Shown: piece by piece, positions 32,282 through 43,238 of the stretch
Layout of the letters: every line of letters begins with the position of its first letter
How positions within the stretch are numbered: the first letter of the stretch is position 1
The notes under the pieces: model-generated
Databases searched by the model: none
Told to the model about the DNA's origin: nothing
What the model saw: only the letters and a program-made list of their open reading frames with translations
DNA from: Dehalococcoidia bacterium
GTDB taxonomy: Bacteria > Chloroflexota > Dehalococcoidia > Lucifugimonadales > UBA3495
Length of the DNA: 64,000 nucleotides
Assembly: GCA_963667415.1 (NCBI GenBank)
Contig: OY763410.1
Coordinates: 656,657 to 720,656 of the forward strand
Direction: 5' to 3'
Translations under genes and position numbers: made by a program

Positions 32282-33445
32282 ATGAAAGACACTATTGAGG
32301 TATTCTGGTTTTCCGAACAGCCCTACGCCCATGTCAGCGATTCTGACCTGGAGCAGTACGACTCCGGCAGGCTGGGCTTTCCCAACACCTTCTTCGACCC
32401 GGAGAAGGCCCACGTTCTCTATAACCAGTACCATGAGCAGTACCAGCTGGCCGACGAGGTCGGCTTCGACGGCATCATGTCCAACGAGCACCACGCTTCC
32501 TACTGGTGCATGAAGCCCGCCGTCAACCTGGACGCCGCAGTCATCTCCAAGCTGACTAAGAACACGAAAATCGCCATCCTCGGCAACGTCATAGCCGTCA
32601 ACGACCCCATCCGCATGGCCGAGGAAATCGCCATGCTCGACTGCTTCTCCAACGGTCGCATCATCTCCGGCTTCGTGCGCGGCACCGCCGTCGAGAGCCT
32701 GGCCGGCGGCATCATCCCCGCTGAGAACCGCGCCCGCTTCGAAGAGGCCCACGACCTCATCATCAAGTGCTGGACCGAGCCGGGCCCCTTCCGCTACGAG
32801 GGCCAGTACTACCACTACCGGGCCGTCAACCCGTGGGTGCTGCCGGTGCAGGACCCGCACCCGCCCATCTGGTTCCCCGGCCTCTCCAGCGCGGAGAGCG
32901 TCGTTTGGGCCGCCAGCCACCAGCACCCCTATATGAACCTGGGTTCCCTCCTCGACTACACCGAGGGACTGAAGGGCGTGTACATCGACACCGCCAAGGA
33001 AGTCGGGTTCACGCCGGGGCCGGAGCACTTCGGCTACCTGCTCCGCGTGTTCTGCGCCGACACCGATGAGAAGGCCCAGCGCATCGGCGAGACCTTCCTC
33101 TGGACCGAGAACCATCGCAACCGGGGCCCCGTCGAGCACAACGACCCGCCCGGCTACCAGTCCCGCGAGGCGGTGCGCATCCAGCGACAGCTCCCGGGCG
33201 CAGGTGGCTTCGGGCGCCGCATGACCTACCAGGAACTGCAGGATGTCGACAACGTCATCGTCGGCAGCCCCGACACCGTGACCCGAAAGCTGAGCAACAT
33301 CATCGAGCGTCTGAACCCGGGATACCTGCACATCTACGGCAACGAGGGCGACATGGACCACCCCGACGTGCTGCGCTCCATCGAGCTGTTGGGCCGCGAG
33401 GTCATCCCGGCCCTGCACGAAATCCAGCTACAGCCCTACGAGTAG
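32282..33445 (+). CDS. luciferase-like (LLM class) flavin-dependent oxidoreductase
   Basis: 387 aa with an LLM-type TIM-barrel pattern (FDGIMSNEHH...ILGNVIAVNDPIRMAEEIAMLD..SNGRIISGF). SD AGGAG lies upstream. Confidence 0.85.
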   Translation: MKDTIEVFWFSEQPYAHVSDSDLEQYDSGRLGFPNTFFDPEKAHVLYNQYHEQYQLADEVGFDGIMSNEHHASYWCMKPAVNLDAAVISKLTKNTKIAILGNVIAVNDPIRMAEEIAMLDCFSNGRIISGFVRGTAVESLAGGIIPAENRARFEEAHDLIIKCWTEPGPFRYEGQYYHYRAVNPWVLPVQDPHPPIWFPGLSSAESVVWAASHQHPYMNLGSLLDYTEGLKGVYIDTAKEVGFTPGPEHFGYLLRVFCADTDEKAQRIGETFLWTENHRNRGPVEHNDPPGYQSREAVRIQRQLPGAGGFGRRMTYQELQDVDNVIVGSPDTVTRKLSNIIERLNPGYLHIYGNEGDMDHPDVLRSIELLGREVIPALHEIQLQPYE

Positions 33446-33819: not shown

Positions 33820-34983
33820 ATGATTACCAAGTTCGACAGCTTGTTCGCCGGCCACGTGGATATGACCAACATCGGCTACGGCGGCACCGCGGTCAACGAC
33901 CGCGTCTTTGACAACGACCACCTGTCCTCCGTCTTCCCCAAGTCCGAGGCCATCGCGAAGACCATGGACGAAAACGGCTACGACACCATGTGGATGGCGG
34001 AGCACCACTTCCAGCCCGAGGGCTACGAGTGCATACCCAACCTCATCATGCTCAACGTCCACCTCGCCCACCTGACCAAGGACCTCAAGTTCGGTTGCGG
34101 CTTCAACATCGCCCCGATGTGGCATCCACTGCGTTTGGCCGAGGACTTCGCCACCGCCGACATCCTGACCGGCGGCCGCGTCATCTTCGGCGTGGGCCGC
34201 GGCTACCACACCCGCGAGATCGAAACCTTCGGCTCGCCGCTGCAGGACCAGGACGCCAACCGCGAGCTGTTCGAGGAGCAGGTCGATATCATCTTCAAGG
34301 CCTTCAACGAGGAGTCGTGGTCGCACCAGGGCAAGAACTACACCCTGCCGCCCGAGGTGCCCTACCGCGGCTATACCCTGAAGGAGCTGACCCTGGTCCC
34401 CCGTCCGACGAAGCTACCCGTAGAGTGTTGGCAGCCCATCCAGGGCGGCACGCAGCGCGCCCTGGACTTCATGGTCAAGCACAACATCAAGGGCATCATC
34501 GGCGGCGGCGTGGCCGAGGGCGGCGCGATGGACAGCGTCATCTACGGCTATCGCGACGCCATGATTCGCGCCGGACATGAGGAACCCGAGCCGGGCACCA
34601 ACATCAGCGTCGGCTTCCACTTCCATCTCGCACCGTCGGTGGAGCAGGCGATGGACGAGGCCCAGGGCTTCTTCGAGGAGAACCTGAAGATGTTCGGCCC
34701 GCTGCGCCTGTCCCGCCGACTCTCCGACGAGGAGATACGCGACATCGGCGACCCAAGCCGTGCGCCCACCGCCGGGCTGCCCACCATCCAGGGTGCGGTC
34801 GAGGGCGGTGCGTTCCTGGCCGGCCCGCCCGACCGCGTCATCGAGCAGCTCAAGGCCGTCGAGAAGCAGTATCCGGGCCTCGAGCGCGTCGGCGTCAGCC
34901 ACCCCGTGGGCACCCCCCAGAGCGTCATCACCGAGCAACTCGAGTGGTTCGCCAAGGAAGTCATGCCCGAGTTCAAGAAGTAG
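33820..34983 (+). CDS. luciferase-like (LLM class) flavin-dependent oxidoreductase
   Basis: 387 aa with YDTMWMAEHHF...PLRLAEDFATADILTGGRVIFGVGRGY, typical of LLM monooxygenases. SD GGAGAA lies upstream. Confidence 0.88.
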   Translation: MITKFDSLFAGHVDMTNIGYGGTAVNDRVFDNDHLSSVFPKSEAIAKTMDENGYDTMWMAEHHFQPEGYECIPNLIMLNVHLAHLTKDLKFGCGFNIAPMWHPLRLAEDFATADILTGGRVIFGVGRGYHTREIETFGSPLQDQDANRELFEEQVDIIFKAFNEESWSHQGKNYTLPPEVPYRGYTLKELTLVPRPTKLPVECWQPIQGGTQRALDFMVKHNIKGIIGGGVAEGGAMDSVIYGYRDAMIRAGHEEPEPGTNISVGFHFHLAPSVEQAMDEAQGFFEENLKMFGPLRLSRRLSDEEIRDIGDPSRAPTAGLPTIQGAVEGGAFLAGPPDRVIEQLKAVEKQYPGLERVGVSHPVGTPQSVITEQLEWFAKEVMPEFKK

Positions 34984-35112
34984 ACGGGATATGCCGAGCC
35001 GGGCGAGCATGGACCAAGTGCAACGCCTTGTAGGGTCGTTTGATCATTGAGCCTGTGATGGTATAGACTAACAGTGTTGAACCACCCCACTCGCTTCATA
35101 GCGACTGGGCGT

Positions 35113-35143
35113 CAACGGCCACCTCCTAAAGAGGTGGCCGTTG
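35113..35143 (+). terminator. 13-bp stem hairpin (CAACGGCCACCTC/GAGGTGGCCGTTG) after the LLM cassette
   Basis: Perfect inverted repeat with a 5-nt loop, followed by CATTTGT. It lies 130 nt after the stop at 34983 and 17 nt before the NYN gene ATG. Confidence 0.5.
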
Positions 35144-35160
35144 CATTTGTAGGTCCATTG

Positions 35161-35805
35161 ATGAAGACCAACGTTTATATCGACGGCTTCAATCTGTACT
35201 TCGGGGCCCTCAAGGATACGCCCTTCAAGTGGCTTAATCTCTCCGCAATGTGTCAAATGCTTCTACCGGGTCGGAGCATCGGTAAAATCAGGTACTTCAC
35301 CGCACGGGTTATCCCGATGCAAAACGATAGGCAGGCCCCCAACAGGCAAGACACTTACTTGCGAGCACTGGAAACCCTACCGGAATTGACTGCTCACTTT
35401 GGCAGGTTTTCATCTCATCCAGCTTACGCCCCAGCCTATCCTCTCACTTTTTCGACCATAGATGGGAGTACCCGTACCGTCCGAATTCTCAAGACGGAAG
35501 AGAAGCGTACGGATGTGAACCTTGCAACTCTCTTGCTGATGGACTGTGTGGACGAAGCTTTTGAAGAGGCCGCGATTATTTCCAATGATTCTGACCTCCT
35601 GCTTCCGATTGAATATGCAATACATAAGTTCGGCAAGACAGTCGGAGTAATCAACCCTCATCGTCGGAACAAAGTGAGCCAGGAACTTGCCAAAGCCGCT
35701 AGCTGGACATATAGAGAAATCAACCGCAGCGTGCTCGCTGCCAGTCAGTTTCCCGACGTTGTTGAGCACCCCCGCGGCTCGATCACCAAGCCGTCTGCAT
35801 GGTGA
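35161..35805 (+). CDS. NYN-domain (LabA/DUF88-like) putative ribonuclease
   Basis: MKTNVYIDGFNLYFG...EEKRTDVNLA...IISNDSDLLLPI matches the NYN/PIN-like acidic-residue pattern. The gene lies in an AT-richer pocket. ATG 35161 was chosen. Confidence 0.75.
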   Translation: MKTNVYIDGFNLYFGALKDTPFKWLNLSAMCQMLLPGRSIGKIRYFTARVIPMQNDRQAPNRQDTYLRALETLPELTAHFGRFSSHPAYAPAYPLTFSTIDGSTRTVRILKTEEKRTDVNLATLLLMDCVDEAFEEAAIISNDSDLLLPIEYAIHKFGKTVGVINPHRRNKVSQELAKAASWTYREINRSVLAASQFPDVVEHPRGSITKPSAW

Positions 35806-35826: not shown

Positions 35827-35855
35827 TTGACACGCCCATAGGCCCGTCTTACACT
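35827..35855 (+). promoter_or_regulatory. candidate promoter TTGACA-N17-TACACT for the selenoprotein operon
   Basis: TTGACA at 35827..35832, an exact 17-nt spacer, TACACT at 35850..35855. It lies about 50 nt upstream of ATG 35907. Confidence 0.5.
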
Positions 35856-35906
35856 CGCAGGCGACGCACGCTTCGGTCCCTTCCCAAAACTCCGCGAGTG
35901 TAGACG

Positions 35907-36941
35907 ATGCTGACAACCGAGCTTACCGACGCCATTGAGTTGATGTTCGAGACCGGCTGGACCGATGGCCTGCCCGTCGTGCCGCCGTCCGAGGAACTGG
36001 TCCGCCGCTTCGTGGCCCATACCGGGCGCGATGGCAACGAGCTCATCGCGGAGCTGCCCCCGCTGGAGGGCCGCGCCACCGTGGAGCGCATCGCCGTCAA
36101 CGCCGTCATGGCCGGTTGCATCCCCGAGCACATGCCCGTCGTCATCACCGCCCTGCAGGCCATGATGGACGAGCGATTCAACCTGCGCGGCGTAATGTGC
36201 TCCACTGGCATCCACACGCCGTTGCTCATCGTCAACGGCCCGGCGGTGCAGAAGCTGGACATCAATGGCGGCTACAACTGCTTCGGTGCAGGCTGGCGGG
36301 CCAACGCCACCATTGGCCGCGCCGTGAAGCTGGCGCTGGTCAACCTGGGCGGCGCAGTCCCTGGCGAGACCAACAAGGCAACCTTCGGCCACCCCGGCGC
36401 CTACACCTACTGCGTTGCAGAGGACGAGGCAGCCAACCCGTGGACGCCGATGCACGTCGAGATGGGCTACGCCGCCGCCGACAGCACCGTCACCGTGTTC
36501 CCCGCCGAGGCGCCACACAACGTCATGTACCACGCCTCCAACTCCCGCGACTTCCTGACCGTGTTGGCCGACACCATGTGCCCCCTGGGCAACGTCCAGA
36601 TGTACGTGATGGGCGACACCTTCGTTGCCATCGGACCGGAGCACACCAAGTTTCTCCACGCCGACGGCTGGAACAAGCGGGACATCCGGCAGTTCCTCTT
36701 CGAGCACGCCCGCAAGCCGGTTCGCATGATAAAGCACGGCGGCCCTCCCCAGGGCGACGCCCGCCGCGGCCACTTCTGGCCCAAATTCATCGACGCCGAG
36801 GACGACGACCAGATGGTCCCGGTGGTGCGTGCGCCCGACCGCATCCACATCTTCGTGGCGGGAGGCGCCGGTGGCCCCCACTCGGTCTACCTGCCCGGCT
36901 GGGGTTCCCGCGCCGTAACCCGCAAGATAGAAGGCATTTAG
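35907..36941 (+). CDS. conserved-looking protein of unknown function (344 aa), first gene of the selenoprotein operon
   Basis: Strong coding signal. The sequence includes MLTTELTDAIELMFETGWTDGLPVVPPSEELV...NAVMAGC...GVMCSTGIHTP. I cannot assign a family. The antisense 378-aa ORF is a GC shadow. Confidence 0.75.
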   Translation: MLTTELTDAIELMFETGWTDGLPVVPPSEELVRRFVAHTGRDGNELIAELPPLEGRATVERIAVNAVMAGCIPEHMPVVITALQAMMDERFNLRGVMCSTGIHTPLLIVNGPAVQKLDINGGYNCFGAGWRANATIGRAVKLALVNLGGAVPGETNKATFGHPGAYTYCVAEDEAANPWTPMHVEMGYAAADSTVTVFPAEAPHNVMYHASNSRDFLTVLADTMCPLGNVQMYVMGDTFVAIGPEHTKFLHADGWNKRDIRQFLFEHARKPVRMIKHGGPPQGDARRGHFWPKFIDAEDDDQMVPVVRAPDRIHIFVAGGAGGPHSVYLPGWGSRAVTRKIEGI

Positions 36942-36979
36942 GGGACATCCATTCCTGCAATAGCAATGGTGAGGAAACT

Positions 36980-37537
36980 ATGACTGCTACCAACGTCGAA
37001 GAACGCCTGAGACAGATGGGCCTGATGAGTCCCGTCGACCCTGACGCCGCCAATCGCTGGCGTCCCGCCCCTAGGCTCGACACCCTCCACGGCAAGGTGG
37101 GCGGTTTTCTGGGCAATCGGAAGGCCAACTCCGCGCTGCTGCTGCACAATGTTCGCGAGCTGCTGGACCGCGATATGGAGCTCGGCGACTCCATGGCCGT
37201 GGACAAGTACGTCTACTCCCGCCCGGCCGCCGACGATATCATTGACGACCTGGCCGTGCGCTGCGACTTCGTGGTGACTGCCATCGCGGATTGAGGGTCC
37301 TGCACCGCGTGCAGTGTGCACGACGCGATGACCCTCGAGAACCGCGGCGTCCCGACGGTGGTGCTGTGCACCGACCCGTTTCTGAACTCGGCCTTCCGCC
37401 ACGCCAACACCTTCGGCCGCCGCGACTTCCGGCCCCTCGGCTTCCCGCATCCGCTGGGTGGCCTGACCCCGGACCAGGTGTCCGTGCGTGCCGGCGAGCT
37501 GGAGCAAGCCGTGATTGATGTGCTGACGACGTATTAG
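36980..37537 (+). CDS. UGSC-motif selenoprotein (predicted Sec at codon 105 encoded by TGA 37292..37294)
   Basis: ATG 36980 is preceded by GGTGAGGAA. The tracked ORFs 36116..37294 and 37316..37537 are in the same frame (offset 1200 nt) and are separated only by TGA. Read-through gives ..DFVVTAIAD-U-GSCTACSVHDAMTLENRGVPTVVLCTDPF.. A SECIS-like hairpin directly follows the TGA. Confidence 0.75.
37295..37334 (+). promoter_or_regulatory. putative bacterial SECIS stem-loop
   Basis: By hand folding, the lower stem is GGGUC(37295-99)/GACCC(37330-34). The upper stem is CGCGUGCA(37306-13)/UGCACG-A-CG(37317-25). The apical loop is GUG (37314-16), which places G and U at +23/+24 from the UGA, as I recall for E. 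coli fdhF. Confidence 0.55.
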
Positions 37538-37618
37538 CAGCCTTCCGTAGCCCTTCTTCCCCCTGTGAAGTCAGGGTCACCGCTTTACCCGTAACGCAAC
37601 TAAAACAGGAGGCCCACG

Positions 37619-38512
37619 ATGGCAACCGTAGGCAGGGGCAAGTACACGTACGAGGTGGTCCCAGACTGGGAGAAGCTGCCCGAAGGCTGGGTGCTGGGCC
37701 AGACCGCCATCGTCACCGACTCACGGGACCGCGTCTACCTCTTCAACCGAGGCGATCACCCGCTGATCGTCCTCGACCGCGACGGCAACTTCCTCACCTC
37801 CTGGGGCGAGGGACAGCTTCCCGACGCCCACGGCATGTACATCGACGGCGAGGAGAACCTGTACATGCCCGTGAAGAACAGCCATGTCGTCCTGAAGTAC
37901 GACCCCAAGGGCAACCTGCTGATGACCATGGGCGAATGGGACGAGCCCTCCGACACTGGTTGGTCGGGCAACTACAGCGACACCGTCGAGCGCGCCGCCG
38001 GGCCCTTCAACCGGCCCAGCGACATCGCCATTCACCCCAGCGGCGACCTGTTCATCTCCGACGGATACGGCAACGCCCGCGTCCACCGTTTCACCAACAG
38101 CGGTCAACTCGTCGAGTCCTGGGGCAAGCCCGGCAAGACCGGACACGGAGAGTTCCACGTTCCCCACGGCGTTTGGGTGCATACCGATGGCCGCGTGTTT
38201 GTGGCCGACCGCGAGAACAACCGCATCCAGATATTCGATGACCGCGGCAACTTCCTCGAGCAGTGGCTGGGCCTCGCCCGCCCCTGCGACATCTACATCG
38301 ACGCCGACGAAGCTATCTTCGTACCCGAGCTTGACGGCTTCATGACCATCCTCGATATGGACGGCGACATCCTCGCCCGCTGGGGCAGCCCCGTCGAGGT
38401 GGAACACGGCCAGGGCGCCCACGCCGTCTGGGTAGATTCCCACGGCGACATCTACGTCAACCAGAACCTCGAGGGCCATCGGCTGGTCAAGTATCGCCAC
38501 GTAGGTGAGTAG
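37619..38512 (+). CDS. NHL-repeat six-bladed beta-propeller, peptidyl-alpha-hydroxyglycine alpha-amidating lyase (PAL)-like
   Basis: 297 aa with repeated blades such as FNRPSDIAIHPSGDLFISDGYGNARVHRF and HGVWVHTDGRVFVADRENNRIQIFD. SD ACAGGAGG lies upstream. Confidence 0.8.
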   Translation: MATVGRGKYTYEVVPDWEKLPEGWVLGQTAIVTDSRDRVYLFNRGDHPLIVLDRDGNFLTSWGEGQLPDAHGMYIDGEENLYMPVKNSHVVLKYDPKGNLLMTMGEWDEPSDTGWSGNYSDTVERAAGPFNRPSDIAIHPSGDLFISDGYGNARVHRFTNSGQLVESWGKPGKTGHGEFHVPHGVWVHTDGRVFVADRENNRIQIFDDRGNFLEQWLGLARPCDIYIDADEAIFVPELDGFMTILDMDGDILARWGSPVEVEHGQGAHAVWVDSHGDIYVNQNLEGHRLVKYRHVGE

Positions 38513-38585
38513 CGTCGCGAGGGCTTACCGGCGGCGGTCGCGGGTAGTCAGTCCCGCCGGGCATCAACACCTAGGAGCGGCTTAA

Positions 38586-39599
38586 ATGCGCATAGCCTAC
38601 CAGGTTGGCCACGTCGTTCACCGCGATTCCATCGACCACCAACAGCAGTGGCAGAACCATCTGGCGCAGTTTCGCGCATCGCGGGACGCCGGGTTCGACA
38701 TCTATTGCTGGGGCCACCACTACCTCATCGACCCCTTCCAGCACTTCCAGCCGTGGCCGGTCCTGGCCCGGCTGGCGGCCGAACCGGGCGACATGACCCT
38801 GGCGACATCGATACTGCTGCTGCCGCTTCTGAACCCCGTCGATGTGGCGGAGCAGGCTGCCACCCTGGACCACATCGCCGAGGGCCGCTTCGTCCTCGGC
38901 ATCGGCCTCGGTTACCGTCCCGAGGAGTTCGAGGCCTTTGGCGTCAGCATGTCGGAGCGGGGAGCCCGTTGCACCGAGGCCATGCACCTCATGCGCCGGC
39001 TGTGGAGCGAGGACGAGGTAACTCATCACGGGAAATTCTTCAACGTCACCGGAGCGAAGCCGACCGCGCGGCCCTACCAGAAGCCATATCCCAAGGTCTG
39101 GCAGGCGGCTATGAGCGACCCGGCCATCCGGCGCGTGGCGCGCGAGGGCGAGATTCTGTACGTCGGCCCGGCCCAGTCCAACGAGTCCGTTCGCCACCAG
39201 ATAGACCTCTACCATCGCACCCTCGAAGAGTCCGGACACGATGACCCCGGGGAAATGGTCATCGTACGCGAGTTTTACTGTGCCCCCACCCGCGAGGAGG
39301 CCTTGACCAGAGCCCAGGCAAACTTCGCCACAAAGTACGAGGTCTATGCCCAGCATGGCCTGCACGGCACCGACGGCGAACTCACCCGCAAAGTGACCGG
39401 CGACATGGAGTCGCTCATGGACGACACCTTCCTGGTCGGCAGCCCCGAGGAATGTATCGAGCAGATTGCCGCCTACCACGAAATGGGCTTCACCGACGTC
39501 GCCATTCGCCTGTTCTATCCGGAAATGTCCCAGGGCGAGGTGCTGGAACATATCGATCTCGTAGGACAAGAGGTGATTCCCGCCCTGCACGCGCTCTGA
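38586..39599 (+). CDS. luciferase-like (LLM class) flavin/F420-dependent oxidoreductase
   Basis: 337 aa with LLLPLLNPVDVAEQAATLDHIAEGRFVLGIGLGYRPEEFEAFG, typical of LLM enzymes. Confidence 0.88.
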   Translation: MRIAYQVGHVVHRDSIDHQQQWQNHLAQFRASRDAGFDIYCWGHHYLIDPFQHFQPWPVLARLAAEPGDMTLATSILLLPLLNPVDVAEQAATLDHIAEGRFVLGIGLGYRPEEFEAFGVSMSERGARCTEAMHLMRRLWSEDEVTHHGKFFNVTGAKPTARPYQKPYPKVWQAAMSDPAIRRVAREGEILYVGPAQSNESVRHQIDLYHRTLEESGHDDPGEMVIVREFYCAPTREEALTRAQANFATKYEVYAQHGLHGTDGELTRKVTGDMESLMDDTFLVGSPEECIEQIAAYHEMGFTDVAIRLFYPEMSQGEVLEHIDLVGQEVIPALHAL

Positions 39600-39601
39600 G
39601 C

Positions 39602-39632
39602 AACCCGGGCTTTCTTCCCGGGTTTTCTTTGT
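39602..39632 (+). terminator. rho-independent terminator (AACCCGGG-CTTTCTT-CCCGGGTT + TTCTTTGT)
   Basis: Perfect 8-bp GC-rich stem with a 7-nt loop and a T-rich tail, starting 3 nt after the stop codon. Confidence 0.75.
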
Positions 39633-39745
39633 AGCCACTCAGCCTGCTGTTACAATTGACGTTTACGCGGCATCCGGCATGTCCTGTCCGGGCGGCCGGA
39701 ACTCAGCGTGCCCCTTCCGGGGCCCGGCCGCTGCGGCCATTTGAG

Positions 39746-40321
39746 ATGTTTGAAGCCGCCATATGGATCGGAGTCGCCCTCTTCGGCTTGGCTTTGCTGG
39801 CCGTAGTCGAGCGCGTCCGCTCCAGCGCCTTCATGAAGGCCAATGGCGAGACGATCAAGGCATACCTCCCGACTGCCGCTCTTGCCCTGCTTGGATTCAT
39901 TGCCGGCTCCCTCGCCTACCTGTTCTTCTTCCTCTTTTTCATGATCGACATCTGGCAGTACGCCCTCGTAATCGGCGGCCTGATATTTGTCTTGTTGTTC
40001 GTCCGCATCCGGCGGAACTGGTCTGAATTTGCGAAGGTTGCCCCGTCCCCTTCGGGTCGGGTCGAGCAGCAATCACCCGCTTCCACCGGTCTGTTCCCGC
40101 GGATTGGGACCCTCATTCTTCAGGTCGCCGGGGCCATGGTGGCCCTGTTCATGATGCTTCCCGTATTGACCGGATTGTGTCTCCTCTACAACTTCGTGGC
40201 CCTCATAGCGGGAAGCGCCATCGCCAACCTCTTGCTTGCCGCCTCTGCTCTCTGTCTGGCGGCATACCTTTTCAGCCGCCTGCGCTCCCCGGCGCCATCC
40301 GACGCCGAGGGGCCCGACTGA
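39746..40321 (+). CDS. hypothetical integral membrane protein
   Basis: 191 aa from ATG 39746, with about five hydrophobic helices (IWIGVALFGLALLAVV, LALLGFIAGSLAYLFFFLFFMI and others). No family was recognised. Confidence 0.55.
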   Translation: MFEAAIWIGVALFGLALLAVVERVRSSAFMKANGETIKAYLPTAALALLGFIAGSLAYLFFFLFFMIDIWQYALVIGGLIFVLLFVRIRRNWSEFAKVAPSPSGRVEQQSPASTGLFPRIGTLILQVAGAMVALFMMLPVLTGLCLLYNFVALIAGSAIANLLLAASALCLAAYLFSRLRSPAPSDAEGPD

Positions 40322-40382: not shown

Positions 40383-41567
40383 ATGACCACTCAGAGTTCC
40401 CTGCTCACGATCGGCGACTACGAAGCCCGCGCCAAGGAGACCATGCCCAAGGCTCTGTTCGACAGGCTCTTCGGGGACCTTGACGCTCACGACTGGACCA
40501 CCAACACCGCCAATGTGCGCGCCATGGAGGCTGTCAAGCTCCGTCCTCGGGTCCTGGTTGACGTCAGCGAAATTGACCTGTCAACCGAGGTGCTGGGCCA
40601 GCGCATCAGCATGCCGGTGATGCTTGCTCCCACTGGCACCCACCAGCGCGCCCACCCGGCCGGTGAGTTGGCCGCGGCCCGCGCCGCCGCCTCCGCCGAC
40701 ACCATCATGGGCCTGAGCACCGCCTCCAGCTACAGCATCGAGGAGGTGGCAGAGGTCGCCGACAATCCTCTCTGGTTTCAGCTCTACTTCTTCCAGGACC
40801 GCGAGTTGACCGAAATTCTGGTGCGCCGCGCCGAGAACGCCGGCTACACCGCCATGATGCTTACCGTCGACAACCTGGGCGCCAACTCGCGCGAGCGCGA
40901 ATTTCGCTACGCCTACATCCTGGACCAGGAGCGCATCCTCAAGAACTTCGACGGCATCGAGCTTCCGAACCTGCCCAACCAGGGCAACTTCTCCGAGAGC
41001 TTCGAGCACGCCCTCAACTGGCGCGACCTGGAATGGCTGCGTTCGCTGACTTCCATGCCGCTGGTGGTCAAGGGAATCCAGACCGCCGAGGATGCCCGCC
41101 TCTGTGTCGAGCACGGCGCCGAGGCGCTGGTGGTATCCAACCACGGCGGCCATGCCCTGCAGGGTACCGAGGGCTCCATCGACATGCTCCCATCCATCGC
41201 CGACACTGTGGGAGACCGCCTCGAGGTCTACCTCGACGGCGGCATACGCAAGGGAGCCGATGTGCTCAAGGCCCTGGCTCTTGGCGCAAAGGCTACTTTC
41301 GTCGGACGGCCCATCTTCTGGGGTCTTTCCGTCGGGGGAGAGGCGGGTCTCACTCACTGCCTCGAAATCCTGCGCAACGAACTCAGCGTCGCCATGGGCC
41401 TCTGCGGCGTCACCGATGCCCGGCAGGTCGACCGCTCCGTGGCCCAGGACCCGGCAGCGGGTGGCTCTTCCGTCGTGGGCGACCTCGAGCGCCTCGCCCG
41501 CCTACTCGACCAAGGCTACCTCACGAGTGAGGAGTTCGAGTCCCAGAAGTCCCGCCTCCTGGGTTAA
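40383..41567 (+). CDS. FMN-dependent alpha-hydroxy acid dehydrogenase/oxidase (LldD/glycolate oxidase family) with C-terminal SHOCT domain
   Basis: ATG 40383 follows CAGGAGAGGA. The TIM-barrel motifs are present (MLAPTGTHQRAHP, LWFQLYF, VVKGIQT, VSNHGGHAL, DGGIRKGADVLKALALGA). The tail is DLERLARLLDQGYLTSEEFESQKSRLLG. Confidence 0.88.
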   Translation: MTTQSSLLTIGDYEARAKETMPKALFDRLFGDLDAHDWTTNTANVRAMEAVKLRPRVLVDVSEIDLSTEVLGQRISMPVMLAPTGTHQRAHPAGELAAARAAASADTIMGLSTASSYSIEEVAEVADNPLWFQLYFFQDRELTEILVRRAENAGYTAMMLTVDNLGANSREREFRYAYILDQERILKNFDGIELPNLPNQGNFSESFEHALNWRDLEWLRSLTSMPLVVKGIQTAEDARLCVEHGAEALVVSNHGGHALQGTEGSIDMLPSIADTVGDRLEVYLDGGIRKGADVLKALALGAKATFVGRPIFWGLSVGGEAGLTHCLEILRNELSVAMGLCGVTDARQVDRSVAQDPAAGGSSVVGDLERLARLLDQGYLTSEEFESQKSRLLG

Positions 41568-41590: not shown

Positions 41591-41869
41591 ATGGAAGTGA
41601 AAGCTAGGTACGCCAATGGGGTGCTGACGCCCCTCGACCCCCTCGAGCTTGAGGAGGGGTCTGTGGTCGTGGTGGACATCAAGCCTGCGTCCGCTCAAGC
41701 TCCCTATGGCGCTAGGTTGTATAGCGCCATGTCAGACATCCAGGAAGAATTGGAGCGTATCTATCAGCTTCCCGACGACGACCCCAAGAAATACACGATG
41801 CTCCTTGATACGGAAGATTTATATATCTACTTGGACAAGGAGATCAGGTATATGGAAAGCAAGGGATGA
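41591..41869 (+). CDS. antitoxin (DUF104/AF2212-like N-terminus) of a VapBC-type module
   Basis: 92 aa. MEVKARYANGVLTPLDPLELEEGSVVVVDI matches the DUF104 antitoxin pattern. It overlaps the PIN toxin gene by 4 nt (ATGA). Confidence 0.7.
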   Translation: MEVKARYANGVLTPLDPLELEEGSVVVVDIKPASAQAPYGARLYSAMSDIQEELERIYQLPDDDPKKYTMLLDTEDLYIYLDKEIRYMESKG

Positions 41870-42294
41870 TCGTGCCGGATGTCAACCTGCTGATATACGC
41901 ACACAATGAACAAGCCCCTGAGCACGATAACGCCTTGGATTGGTGGACAGGCTTGCTCGCGGGAACCGAGGCGATAGGGTTGCCGTGGGCCGTTTCGACA
42001 GGTTTCGTGAGAGTAATATCTAACCCAAGTGCCGTAAGACCTCCTTTGACAACTCTGGCTGCGGTAGACCAAGTGCAGAGTTGGTTGGAATACGACCACG
42101 TAACGCCCATTCAACCGGGCGCAAGTCATTTGGAATACTTCCGCCGCAATCTCACCGTTCAGCTTGGAGGGCCCAACCTGGTGCCGGACGCCCACATCGC
42201 CGCCCTGGCATTGGAGTACGACGCCAAAGTTCATTCCGCTGACACGGACTTCGGGCGTTTCCCCGGGGTCCGCTGGCGCAACCCATTGGCCTGA
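41866..42294 (+). CDS. vapC: PIN-domain ribonuclease toxin
   Basis: 142 aa with MIVPDVNLLIYAH...LVPDAHIAALALEYDAKVHSADTDFGRF, the PIN acidic residues in the Rv0301-like family pattern. Confidence 0.85.
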   Translation: MIVPDVNLLIYAHNEQAPEHDNALDWWTGLLAGTEAIGLPWAVSTGFVRVISNPSAVRPPLTTLAAVDQVQSWLEYDHVTPIQPGASHLEYFRRNLTVQLGGPNLVPDAHIAALALEYDAKVHSADTDFGRFPGVRWRNPLA

Positions 42295-42347: not shown

Positions 42348-43238
42348 ATGGAAATCGGAGTCATCTTTCCCCAGACTGAAATCGAGCCCGACGTCGCGGC
42401 TATACGCGACTTCGCTCAGGCCGCCCAGGAAATGGGCTACTCGTATTTCTTCGTCGCCGACCACGTGCTCGGGGCCGACGCCAGCGCCTACGACCACCCG
42501 CTTTTCGGCATGTACAACCACGAGTCGGTGGTGCACGAGTCGCTGACGACCATGGGCTACCTTGCCGCAGTCGTCCCCGGCATGGGCCTCATGACCGGCA
42601 TCCTCATCCTGCCCCAGAGGCAGACCGCCCTCGTCGCCAAGCAGGCCGCCGAGATCGACGTACTCTGCGGCGGCAAGCTGCGTCTCGGCATCGGCGTGGG
42701 CTGGAACTTCGTCGAGTACGAAGCCCTCGGAATGAACTTTCAGGACCGCGGCGCCCGCAGCGCGGAGCAGGTACAGCTCATGCGTGAGCTGTGGACCAAG
42801 GAGACGGTGGACTTCCACGGCAAGTGGCACGACATCACCCACGCCGGCATCAATCCCCTGCCCGTGCAGCGCCCCATACCCGTCTGGCTCGGCGTTGGCA
42901 GTCCGGCAGCACCCATTCCCCCCGACGTCGCCCTCCGCCGCGTCGCTCGCATCGCCGACGGCTGGTGCCCCAACTTCGGCCCTGACGAAGCCGGATACGC
43001 GATGCAGGAGAAGGTGCACGGCTACATGGCCGAATACGGCCGCGATCCGTCCGAGCTCGGACTCGACGGTCGCCTGAAAACCGCAGGCAACTCGCCCGAA
43101 GACTGGATTGAAGAGGTCGCCGGTTGGCGCACGATGGGCGCGTCTCACCTCTCCATCGAGAACCGCCGCGGAGGGCTGAAGACCGCTGACGACCATATCG
43201 ATATGATGCGCCGCTTCAGGGAAGCTGTGGAATTCTAG
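42348..43238 (+). CDS. LLM class F420-dependent oxidoreductase (Rv2161c-like subgroup)
   Basis: 296 aa with MEIGVIFPQTE...YSYFFVADHVLG...ILILPQRQTALVAKQAAEIDVLCGGKLRLGIGVGW. Confidence 0.85.
   Translation: MEIGVIFPQTEIEPDVAAIRDFAQAAQEMGYSYFFVADHVLGADASAYDHPLFGMYNHESVVHESLTTMGYLAAVVPGMGLMTGILILPQRQTALVAKQAAEIDVLCGGKLRLGIGVGWNFVEYEALGMNFQDRGARSAEQVQLMRELWTKETVDFHGKWHDITHAGINPLPVQRPIPVWLGVGSPAAPIPPDVALRRVARIADGWCPNFGPDEAGYAMQEKVHGYMAEYGRDPSELGLDGRLKTAGNSPEDWIEEVAGWRTMGASHLSIENRRGGLKTADDHIDMMRRFREAVEF

Follow-up and report, generated by a model that had tools for sequence, protein, structure and literature searches.

The locus

We analysed a cluster of four genes in a Dehalococcoidia bacterium (Chloroflexota; assembly GCA_963667415.1, contig OY763410.1, positions 656,657 to 720,656; this stretch of 64,000 nucleotides is called the window below). 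The first gene encodes a protein of 344 amino acids, here named p344, and the second a selenoprotein of the UGSC family; genes for an NHL-repeat beta-propeller and for an oxidoreductase of the luciferase-like monooxygenase (LLM) class follow (Table 1). An earlier reading, made from the sequence alone (the sequence-only reading), had described the four genes as one promoter-to-terminator unit, possibly a selenium-dependent oxidative or reductive module, in which p344 would be an enzyme and the selenoprotein its dedicated redox partner. An open reading frame (ORF) check and a consensus scan confirmed the four plus-strand ORFs, the gaps of 38, 81 and 73 nt between them, and the promoter-like and terminator-like sites, all where that reading had placed them. 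Its family calls for the other three proteins agreed with matches to PF24696, PF01436 and PF00296, and p344, for which it could name no family, had no match in Pfam, NCBIfam, PDB sequence or profile searches, even at an E-value of 10. The G+C content of the window is 62.5%, and its nearest relatives are Dehalococcoidia metagenome-assembled genomes (MAGs) with 91-95% protein identity.

Table 1. Genes and sequence elements of the cluster (positions in the window)
Feature	Position	Strand	Basis or remark
Sigma-70-like promoter TTGACA-N17-TACACT, upstream of p344	35827..35855	+	consensus scan, 10/12 matches
p344, 344 amino acids	35907..36941	+	family without a name
UGSC-family selenoprotein, 185 amino acids, selenocysteine 105 in D-U-G-S-C-T-A-C	36980..37537	+	translation, PF24696
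Selenocysteine codon UGA (TGA)	37292..37294	+	in frame within the UGSC gene
SECIS-type hairpin CGUGCA-GUG-UGCACG	37308..37322	+	nt 17-31 after the U of UGA; RNA fold
NHL-repeat beta-propeller protein, 297 amino acids	37619..38512	+	PF01436; clade-specific neighbour
Luciferase-like (LLM class) oxidoreductase, 337 amino acids	38586..39599	+	PF00296; clade-specific neighbour
Intrinsic-terminator-like hairpin and T-run	39602..39634 (scan match 39602..39624)	+	scan, fold energy -13.3 kcal/mol

The second gene encodes a selenoprotein

The second gene belongs to a known family of no assigned function, the 'UGSC-containing protein' of Zhang and Gladyshev, which corresponds to PF24696 and NF041046 and is among the most abundant selenoproteins of ocean metagenomes (PMC2398784, PMC1976440, PMC13188914). 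The window protein matched PF24696 with 150.6 bits (6e-44; cut-off 25) over residues 17-183 of 185. With selenocysteine (Sec) entered as cysteine it scored 121.5 bits against NF041046, for which the cut-off is 125; this model was matched by all 28 UGSC relatives compared, at best with 2.2e-49. Readthrough of the in-frame TGA gives ...VTAIAD-U-GSCTACSVHD..., with Sec as residue 105.

Gene callers treat this TGA as a true stop and yield separate products of 105 and 71 amino acids, as if the gene were split or a pseudogene. That explanation, however, is effectively refuted. We compared 150 homologous UGSC sites, drawn from the window and 161 retrieved loci; at the position of U105 the codon was TGA in 147 of them, with the frame kept beyond it, and TGC in the remaining three (Achromobacter, Mycobacterium gordonae and an Actinomycetota MAG), which are full-length homologues with cysteine at this position. 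The sequence downstream of the codon is constrained as well. All six base pairs of the hairpin formed in 117 of 133 unique homologues, and the loop was G-U-N in 128; the serine codon contributing the loop's G-U was AGU in 119, and neither UCN nor AGC occurred, although third positions are GC-rich. On a 60-sequence alignment 95% of cells were paired, while slid registers collapsed, and covariation was 0.308 as against 0.118 after shuffling (0 of 500 shuffles reached the observed value). A C-G to G-C swap, seen in 22 of the 60 sequences, changes a cysteine codon UGC to tryptophan UGG and is compensated in the Val/Ile codon. A lower stem extends the folded element to 37292..37337 in this clade. 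The hairpin is thus an element of the selenocysteine insertion sequence (SECIS) type under RNA-level selection, and the gene is a genuine UGSC selenoprotein gene. The hairpin matched no Rfam family, and the 64-kb window contains neither sel genes nor a tRNA-Sec, tRNA-Glu being the sole tRNA detected there.

p344 is a conserved partner of UGSC

We scanned one genome per GTDB species with motifs of p344 and obtained 80 loci, 72 of which had at least 1 kb on both sides and were taken as informative. In 58 of these 72, UGSC is the same-strand neighbour of p344, as it is in 41 of the 55 whose p344 is below 60% identity. The groups represented among the loci are Dehalococcoidia, Methylomirabilota/Rokubacteria, Binatia, Alpha- and Betaproteobacteria, Entotheonella, Poribacteria and Actinomycetota. 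Among TGA-bearing sites p344 precedes UGSC in 46 and follows it in 18, the strand always being shared. The reciprocal scan of metagenomes, seeded with a motif from six UGSC sequences, yielded 80 loci, 68 of which contain p344; of the 26 with at least 1.3 kb on both flanks, all do. These counts are biased to Sec-type genes, because the seed motif overlaps the SECIS-constrained peptide. No third gene was generally conserved beside the pair in the loci surveyed. One Betaproteobacteria MAG (L050) carries four UGSC/p344 pairs within 17 kb, all of Sec type and one of them fused; a search of the 64-kb window revealed no second pair.

The two proteins are also frequently joined in one chain. A p344 profile search of 1.84 billion representatives returned 7,109 clusters (50% identity) at E-values of 1e-3 or below and 2,102 at 1e-30 or below, and 7,895 of 8,000 scored candidates from the clustered database were homologues. 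Among the best 150 of the 7,109 clusters, 76 representatives were p344 alone and 49 contained parts of UGSC. In 32 of the 49 the part of UGSC that follows the UGA stood at the N-terminus, as in a Sec-type UGSC-p344 fusion shortened by gene callers; 13 had a complete N-terminal UGSC domain, either Cys-type or degenerate, and four had the part preceding the UGA at the C-terminus. Tandem duplications of p344 made up seven more representatives, and 18 had other extensions that the UGSC profile did not account for. In-frame p344/UGSC fusions were observed directly at three genomic loci (L062, L078 and L050). UGSC has been described as fused to an undefined domain, 'Unknown_1', in an earlier survey (PMC2398784); this domain is probably p344.

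p344 is, then, a conserved and often fused partner of UGSC, and the core functional unit at this locus is two genes, not four. The idea of an enzyme with a dedicated redox partner is thereby strongly backed, by reciprocal neighbourhoods across phyla, by fusions and by the attachments to the thioredoxin system described below.

Across 151 p344 sequences, C71 (in NAVMAGC) is kept in 96% and C169 (in YTYC) in 91%, while conservation reaches 97% or more for each of D20, G21, P23, N133, R138, E172 and W179; further motifs are W-x-DGLP-x-x-PPT, RANATIGRA and VAGG-x-G-x-HS. We propose p344 as the substrate-binding or catalytic subunit. Duplication of the whole of p344 in tandem (P0125, P0128, P0139, P0150, P0166 and P0189; 709-741 amino acids) hints that p344 acts as a dimer. 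The Cys-type p344 proteins of Achromobacter (L063), the Actinomycetota MAG (L075) and M. gordonae (L077) bear a conserved C-terminal C-x-x-x-x-C tail (..DCSDGACRL), which the window protein lacks and which could serve as an extra redox shuttle.

The downstream NHL and LLM genes are lineage-specific

The sequence-only reading had joined all four genes into one operon serving a single selenium-dependent pathway. The common strand, the short gaps and the flanking promoter and terminator speak for this, and so does gene order: p344-UGSC...NHL-LLM, with or without a following FMN-dependent dehydrogenase gene, was found in 18 of 18 close relatives (L001-L018; p344 identity of at least 73%). Only in these 18, however, do the NHL gene, the LLM gene (LLM4) and the FMN-dependent dehydrogenase gene follow the pair; neither NHL nor LLM stands beside it in any of 63 more distant genome loci, nor in the cultured examples. 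Even among the close relatives, genes with low G+C at third codon positions are inserted between UGSC and NHL in four (L002, L008, L009 and L018), some on the opposite strand. These inserts (L002 9838..10254, L008 9673..11497, L009 9660..10226 and L018 9659..10036) are small and have no assigned function. LLM genes are, moreover, abundant in this genome, with four paralogues in 11 kb (32282..33445, 33820..34983, 38586..39599 and 42348..43238), so that adjacency of an LLM gene alone says little about function. Expansions of flavin monooxygenases have reportedly been seen in SAR202-type Dehalococcoidia, and the LLM paralogues of the window fit that pattern.

The bracketing elements fared differently from each other. 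By consensus scan, both kinds of site occur at chance level over a 9.5-kb stretch (2 promoter-like sites found and 1.5 expected; 8 terminator-like sites found and 5.9 expected). The promoter is nevertheless supported, because it leaves a phylogenetic footprint: GCG-TTGAC[AG]-N17-TACACTC lies upstream of p344 in 15 of the 18 close relatives, while spacer and flanks diverge. The motif was missing upstream of p344 in the other three (L001, L004 and L010); in L001 and L004 the pair sits right after two upstream LLM genes. The terminator-like hairpin has 8 bp, six of them G-C, followed by a T-run, but comparison with the loci of the relatives revealed no conservation of it. In this genome the p344-UGSC pair has its own conserved promoter.

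A four-gene module is not conserved, since NHL and LLM are confined to the close Dehalococcoidia clade, and we regard the single four-gene operon as unlikely. Co-occurrence across genomes, which the sequence-only reading had suggested as a check, was borne out for p344 with UGSC and found only in the close clade for NHL and LLM. The last two are at best lineage-specific neighbours, which may act on the same compound as the pair. The NHL protein matched PF01436 (1.1e-14, in two stretches) and, among PDB sequences, TRIM-NHL (1.6e-34) and PAL (3fvz, 5e-20). The LLM protein matched PF00296 (Bac_luciferase; 4.5e-62, 210.6 bits, residues 15-303); its best NCBIfam match was the F420-type model TIGR03619, with 146 bits, below the 167-bit cut-off.

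Predicted folds

A natural fusion of both domains (P0163, 528 residues) was modelled by AlphaFold 2 with high confidence (predicted local distance difference test, pLDDT, 92.3; predicted template modelling score, pTM, 0.92). The UGSC domain is predicted to adopt a three-layer sandwich of the flavodoxin type, in which the helix after strand 3 begins with Sec. Foldseek matched this domain to flavodoxin domains of flavodiiron proteins, azoreductases and lumazine synthase (probability 0.98-1.0). A thioredoxin-like (Trx-like) fold had been guessed for UGSC in 2008 (PMC2398784); the model is flavodoxin-like instead.

The p344 part of the fusion model had no Foldseek match. p344 alone was modelled with a pTM of 0.84; its loop PG..DKATFGHPG.YTYC has a pLDDT below 50 in this model and is confident in the fusion model, a contrast that is merely suggestive because the alignment of the fusion was deeper. 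We considered p344 as a homologue of fumarate hydratase, its best Foldseek match being the class I alpha subunit, and rejected this (template modelling score, TM, 0.30-0.34; root-mean-square deviation 16 Å; E-value 7e-4).

Around its Sec residue, UGSC shows faint similarity to known selenoprotein subunits. Of 28 UGSC members, seven matched the models of GrdB and 'various selenoprotein B' (TIGR01917 and TIGR01918; best 1.9e-4), four matched PrdB, three GrdF and two GrdH. The GrdB/PrdB-type matches fall at model positions of about 323-397, the region of GrdB that we take to hold its Sec. For a relation between UGSC and GrdB/PrdB around Sec this is a lead, not a proof.

Thioredoxin-system and catabolic neighbours

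In relatives, p344 is repeatedly attached to parts of the thioredoxin system. It is fused to a thioredoxin-reductase-like domain with CAVC in P0204, to FeThRed_B, the catalytic-subunit domain of ferredoxin-thioredoxin reductase (FTR), in P0168 (which also has UGSC) and P0227, and to AhpC-TSA/Redoxin domains with CxxC in P0184 and P0207 and, by similarity, P0238; another fusion partner is a CxxC domain of about 85 amino acids with a weak NifU-like match. Thirteen metagenome loci that also have UGSC carry a Redoxin gene directly 5' of p344. Gene order is trxB-trxA-p344-UGSC in Arthrobacter sp. ERGS1:01 and trxB-TTT-SDR-p344-UGSC in Variovorax sp. SRS16. Roseovarius sp. THAF8 has LysR / p344-UGSC-trxB, next to a CaiB/BaiF coenzyme A (CoA)-transferase and a TRAP transporter, and the archaeon Natrinema has UGSC-p344-DUF6282-NAD(P)-binding protein-MFS transporter. 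In Achromobacter, M. gordonae and the Actinomycetota MAG we found LysR / p344-UGSC-CoA-transferase, followed by TrxB in two of them and by an acyl-CoA dehydrogenase in one. The pairs of Arthrobacter, Roseovarius, Variovorax and Natrinema are all of Cys type, and Cys-type versions also occur in culturable Paracoccus versutus, Achromobacter and M. gordonae.

Over 167 loci, the neighbours were CoA-transferases of CaiB type (17), SDR proteins (17), Redoxin (13), TTT binding proteins (11), TrxB (8), LysR (8) and aconitase X (3). This pattern, together with the multiple pairs, fits a substrate-diversified catabolic family. The transporters, LysR regulators and CoA-transferases nearby suggest a small carboxylic acid as the class of substrate, and the thioredoxin-system modules attached in relatives argue for a reductive thiol/selenol relay. 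Of the 'oxidative or reductive' module first envisaged, then, it is the reductive half that the data favour, the oxidative one having found no support.

A candidate two-subunit reductase

We consider it fairly probable that p344 and UGSC form a selenol/thiol-dependent, thioredoxin-driven two-subunit reductase. At the level of sequence, this reading is carried by the decoding of Sec, by the conserved pairing and fusions and by the thioredoxin-system modules in relatives; from these we infer the formation of a complex, the direction of electron flow, the roles of C71 and C169 and the nature of the substrate. Sec105 would be inserted at the UGA with the help of the conserved hairpin 16 nt downstream, and would form, with the cysteine of U-x-x-C, a redox-active motif at the N-terminus of a helix in the predicted flavodoxin-like domain. 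p344, the partner subunit, probably holds the substrate site and contributes two near-invariant cysteines. The compound reduced by the complex would be small and organic, probably a carboxylic acid that TRAP or TTT transporters import or that CoA-transferases act on. Electrons would come from the Sec/Cys pair, which would end as a selenenylsulfide; this bond may be re-reduced with electrons passed from NAD(P)H via TrxB and then Trx or Redoxin to UGSC, or alternatively from ferredoxin through an FTR-like domain. The overall logic would resemble that of glycine and D-proline reductase. More tentatively, the family may represent a new class of thioredoxin-driven, Sec-dependent reductases that have a catalytic fold new to the PDB and act on small organic acids in aerobic heterotrophs, in bacteria as well as haloarchaea.

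Several observations weigh against a reductase of this kind. Neither a substrate nor an activity has been assigned to any p344/UGSC member, and the window's own cluster contains no thioredoxin-system gene. The similarity to GrdB and PrdB is below threshold: the window UGSC scores 16.9 bits against TIGR01917 (threshold 602) and 13.3 against TIGR01918 (threshold 65). p344 and 30 of its relatives gave no match to GrdE, PrdA, Gly_reductase or any other thiol-dependent reductase, even at an E-value of 10. Fourteen of the 72 informative p344 loci lack a neighbouring UGSC; they belong to Poribacteria, Rokubacteria/Methylomirabilota and a few other groups, and six of them, when inspected, had no obvious substitute partner. 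Finally, neither Sec nor Cys is left in the fused UGSC domains of P0178, P0143, Sporomusa and Vibrio, while p344 retains its cysteines, so p344 can function without a redox-active UGSC.

The last fusions deserve description in their own right. The degenerate fusions of Sporomusa termitida (pSPTER; L165 6281..8005) and Vibrio europaeus (pVEu; L166 5323..7008), of 561-574 amino acids, read ..GDMGTS.. and are encoded beside aconitase X and DUF126; both have extra cysteines in a conserved loop. They may represent a non-redox or differently wired subfamily.

p344 might instead be a metal or Fe-S hydro-lyase or isomerase, with UGSC providing a Sec/Cys ligand or serving activation or assembly, and with no net reduction. 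The neighbours and loop cysteines of the Sporomusa and Vibrio fusions would suit such an enzyme, as would the Fe-S-related nature of the fused NifU-like and FeThRed_B domains and the fact that the sole fold match of p344 (E-value 7e-4) is to an Fe-S hydro-lyase, the alpha subunit of class I fumarate hydratase. That match, however, has a TM of 0.30-0.34 and a deviation of 16 Å, p344 has just two near-invariant cysteines, and the trxB-trxA operons and the fusions to thioredoxin reductase and Redoxin are most simply read as electron donors. We judge a hydro-lyase rather unlikely; it keeps some weight because of the degenerate UGSC fusions and the lineages without UGSC near p344.

The links to Trx and TrxB and the AhpC-TSA/Redoxin fusions could also reflect a role in antioxidant defence or repair, for instance as a peroxidase or sulfoxide reductase, in place of a catabolic one; most prokaryotic selenoproteins are thiol oxidoreductase-like (PMC2398784). 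The presence of several paralogous pairs per locus, alongside LysR regulators, transporters and CoA-transferases, argues against this, as does the predicted flavodoxin-like and not Trx-type fold of UGSC, and we find an antioxidant role decidedly unlikely. We give low probability to a p344 that cleaves itself at a cysteine and so acquires a pyruvoyl group in the manner of GrdE and PrdA: C71 is situated between two helices, and there is no other support.

For about twenty years UGSC has been listed among the most abundant prokaryotic selenoproteins without a function (PMC1976440, PMC2398784, PMC13188914). With its near-constant partner, the frequent fusion and the recruitment of TrxB, Trx, Redoxin or FTR modules in relatives, it becomes an enzyme system that can be tested, and genetics and biochemistry are feasible without expression of selenocysteine, because Cys-type versions exist in culturable organisms. 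The analysis also brings to light a very large protein family: it comprises at least 7,100 clusters (50% identity), is covered by neither Pfam nor NCBIfam models and lacks structural relatives. In the literature searched there was no description of the partner family, the fusion pattern, the attached redox chain or the flavodoxin-like fold.

Other genes around the cluster

Between the upstream pair of LLM genes and p344 lies a NYN-domain gene (PF01936, 9e-7; 35074..35805, of which 35164..35802 was scanned). It is present in L002, L003 and L005, reduced to a fragment in L012 and absent from L001 and L004, and looks like a variable insertion. Downstream of the cluster, a hydrophobic ORF of 221 amino acids (39656..40321) has no Pfam match; L001 has an unannotated gene of 189 amino acids in its place. 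It is followed by a gene for an FMN-dependent alpha-hydroxy-acid dehydrogenase or oxidase with a C-terminal SHOCT domain (40383..41567; PF01070, 4e-118), which most close relatives also carry in synteny with the cluster. An AF2212-like antitoxin gene (41591..41869) then overlaps a PIN-domain toxin gene (41866..42294), the two forming a VapBC-like pair; L001 has an N6/N4 DNA methyltransferase gene in place of the PIN gene.

Comparison with known systems

The UGSC hairpin resembles the SECIS of E. coli fdhF in lying directly 3' of the UGA and in having G and U in its apical loop; these fall at about +23 and +24 in UGSC, as they presumably do in the fdhF element. It differs in its shorter stem (6 bp, with a 3-nt loop) and in lying wholly within conserved coding sequence.

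With fusions of Msr to Trx and with peroxiredoxins, the p344/UGSC pair would share dependence on a dithiol relay, and in both redoxin or thioredoxin-reductase domains are fused to the catalytic domain, p344 being the putative one here; there is similarity of neither sequence nor fold.

There is a parallel in organization with the glycine and D-proline reductases. In the grd operon the selenoprotein gene stands next to the gene of a larger partner subunit, and GrdE/GrdB and PrdA/PrdB, like p344/UGSC, pair a U-x-x-C selenoprotein subunit with a larger partner encoded beside it. p344 has, however, no relationship to GrdE and PrdA, which are pyruvoyl proproteins, and equivalents of GrdA, GrdC and GrdD are missing. 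Unlike the hosts of the Grd and Prd systems, those of p344/UGSC are mostly aerobic heterotrophs, haloarchaea included. The Grd and Prd enzymes are re-reduced by a thiol/thioredoxin system, and in some relatives of p344/UGSC, though not in the window, trxB and trxA share an operon with the pair.

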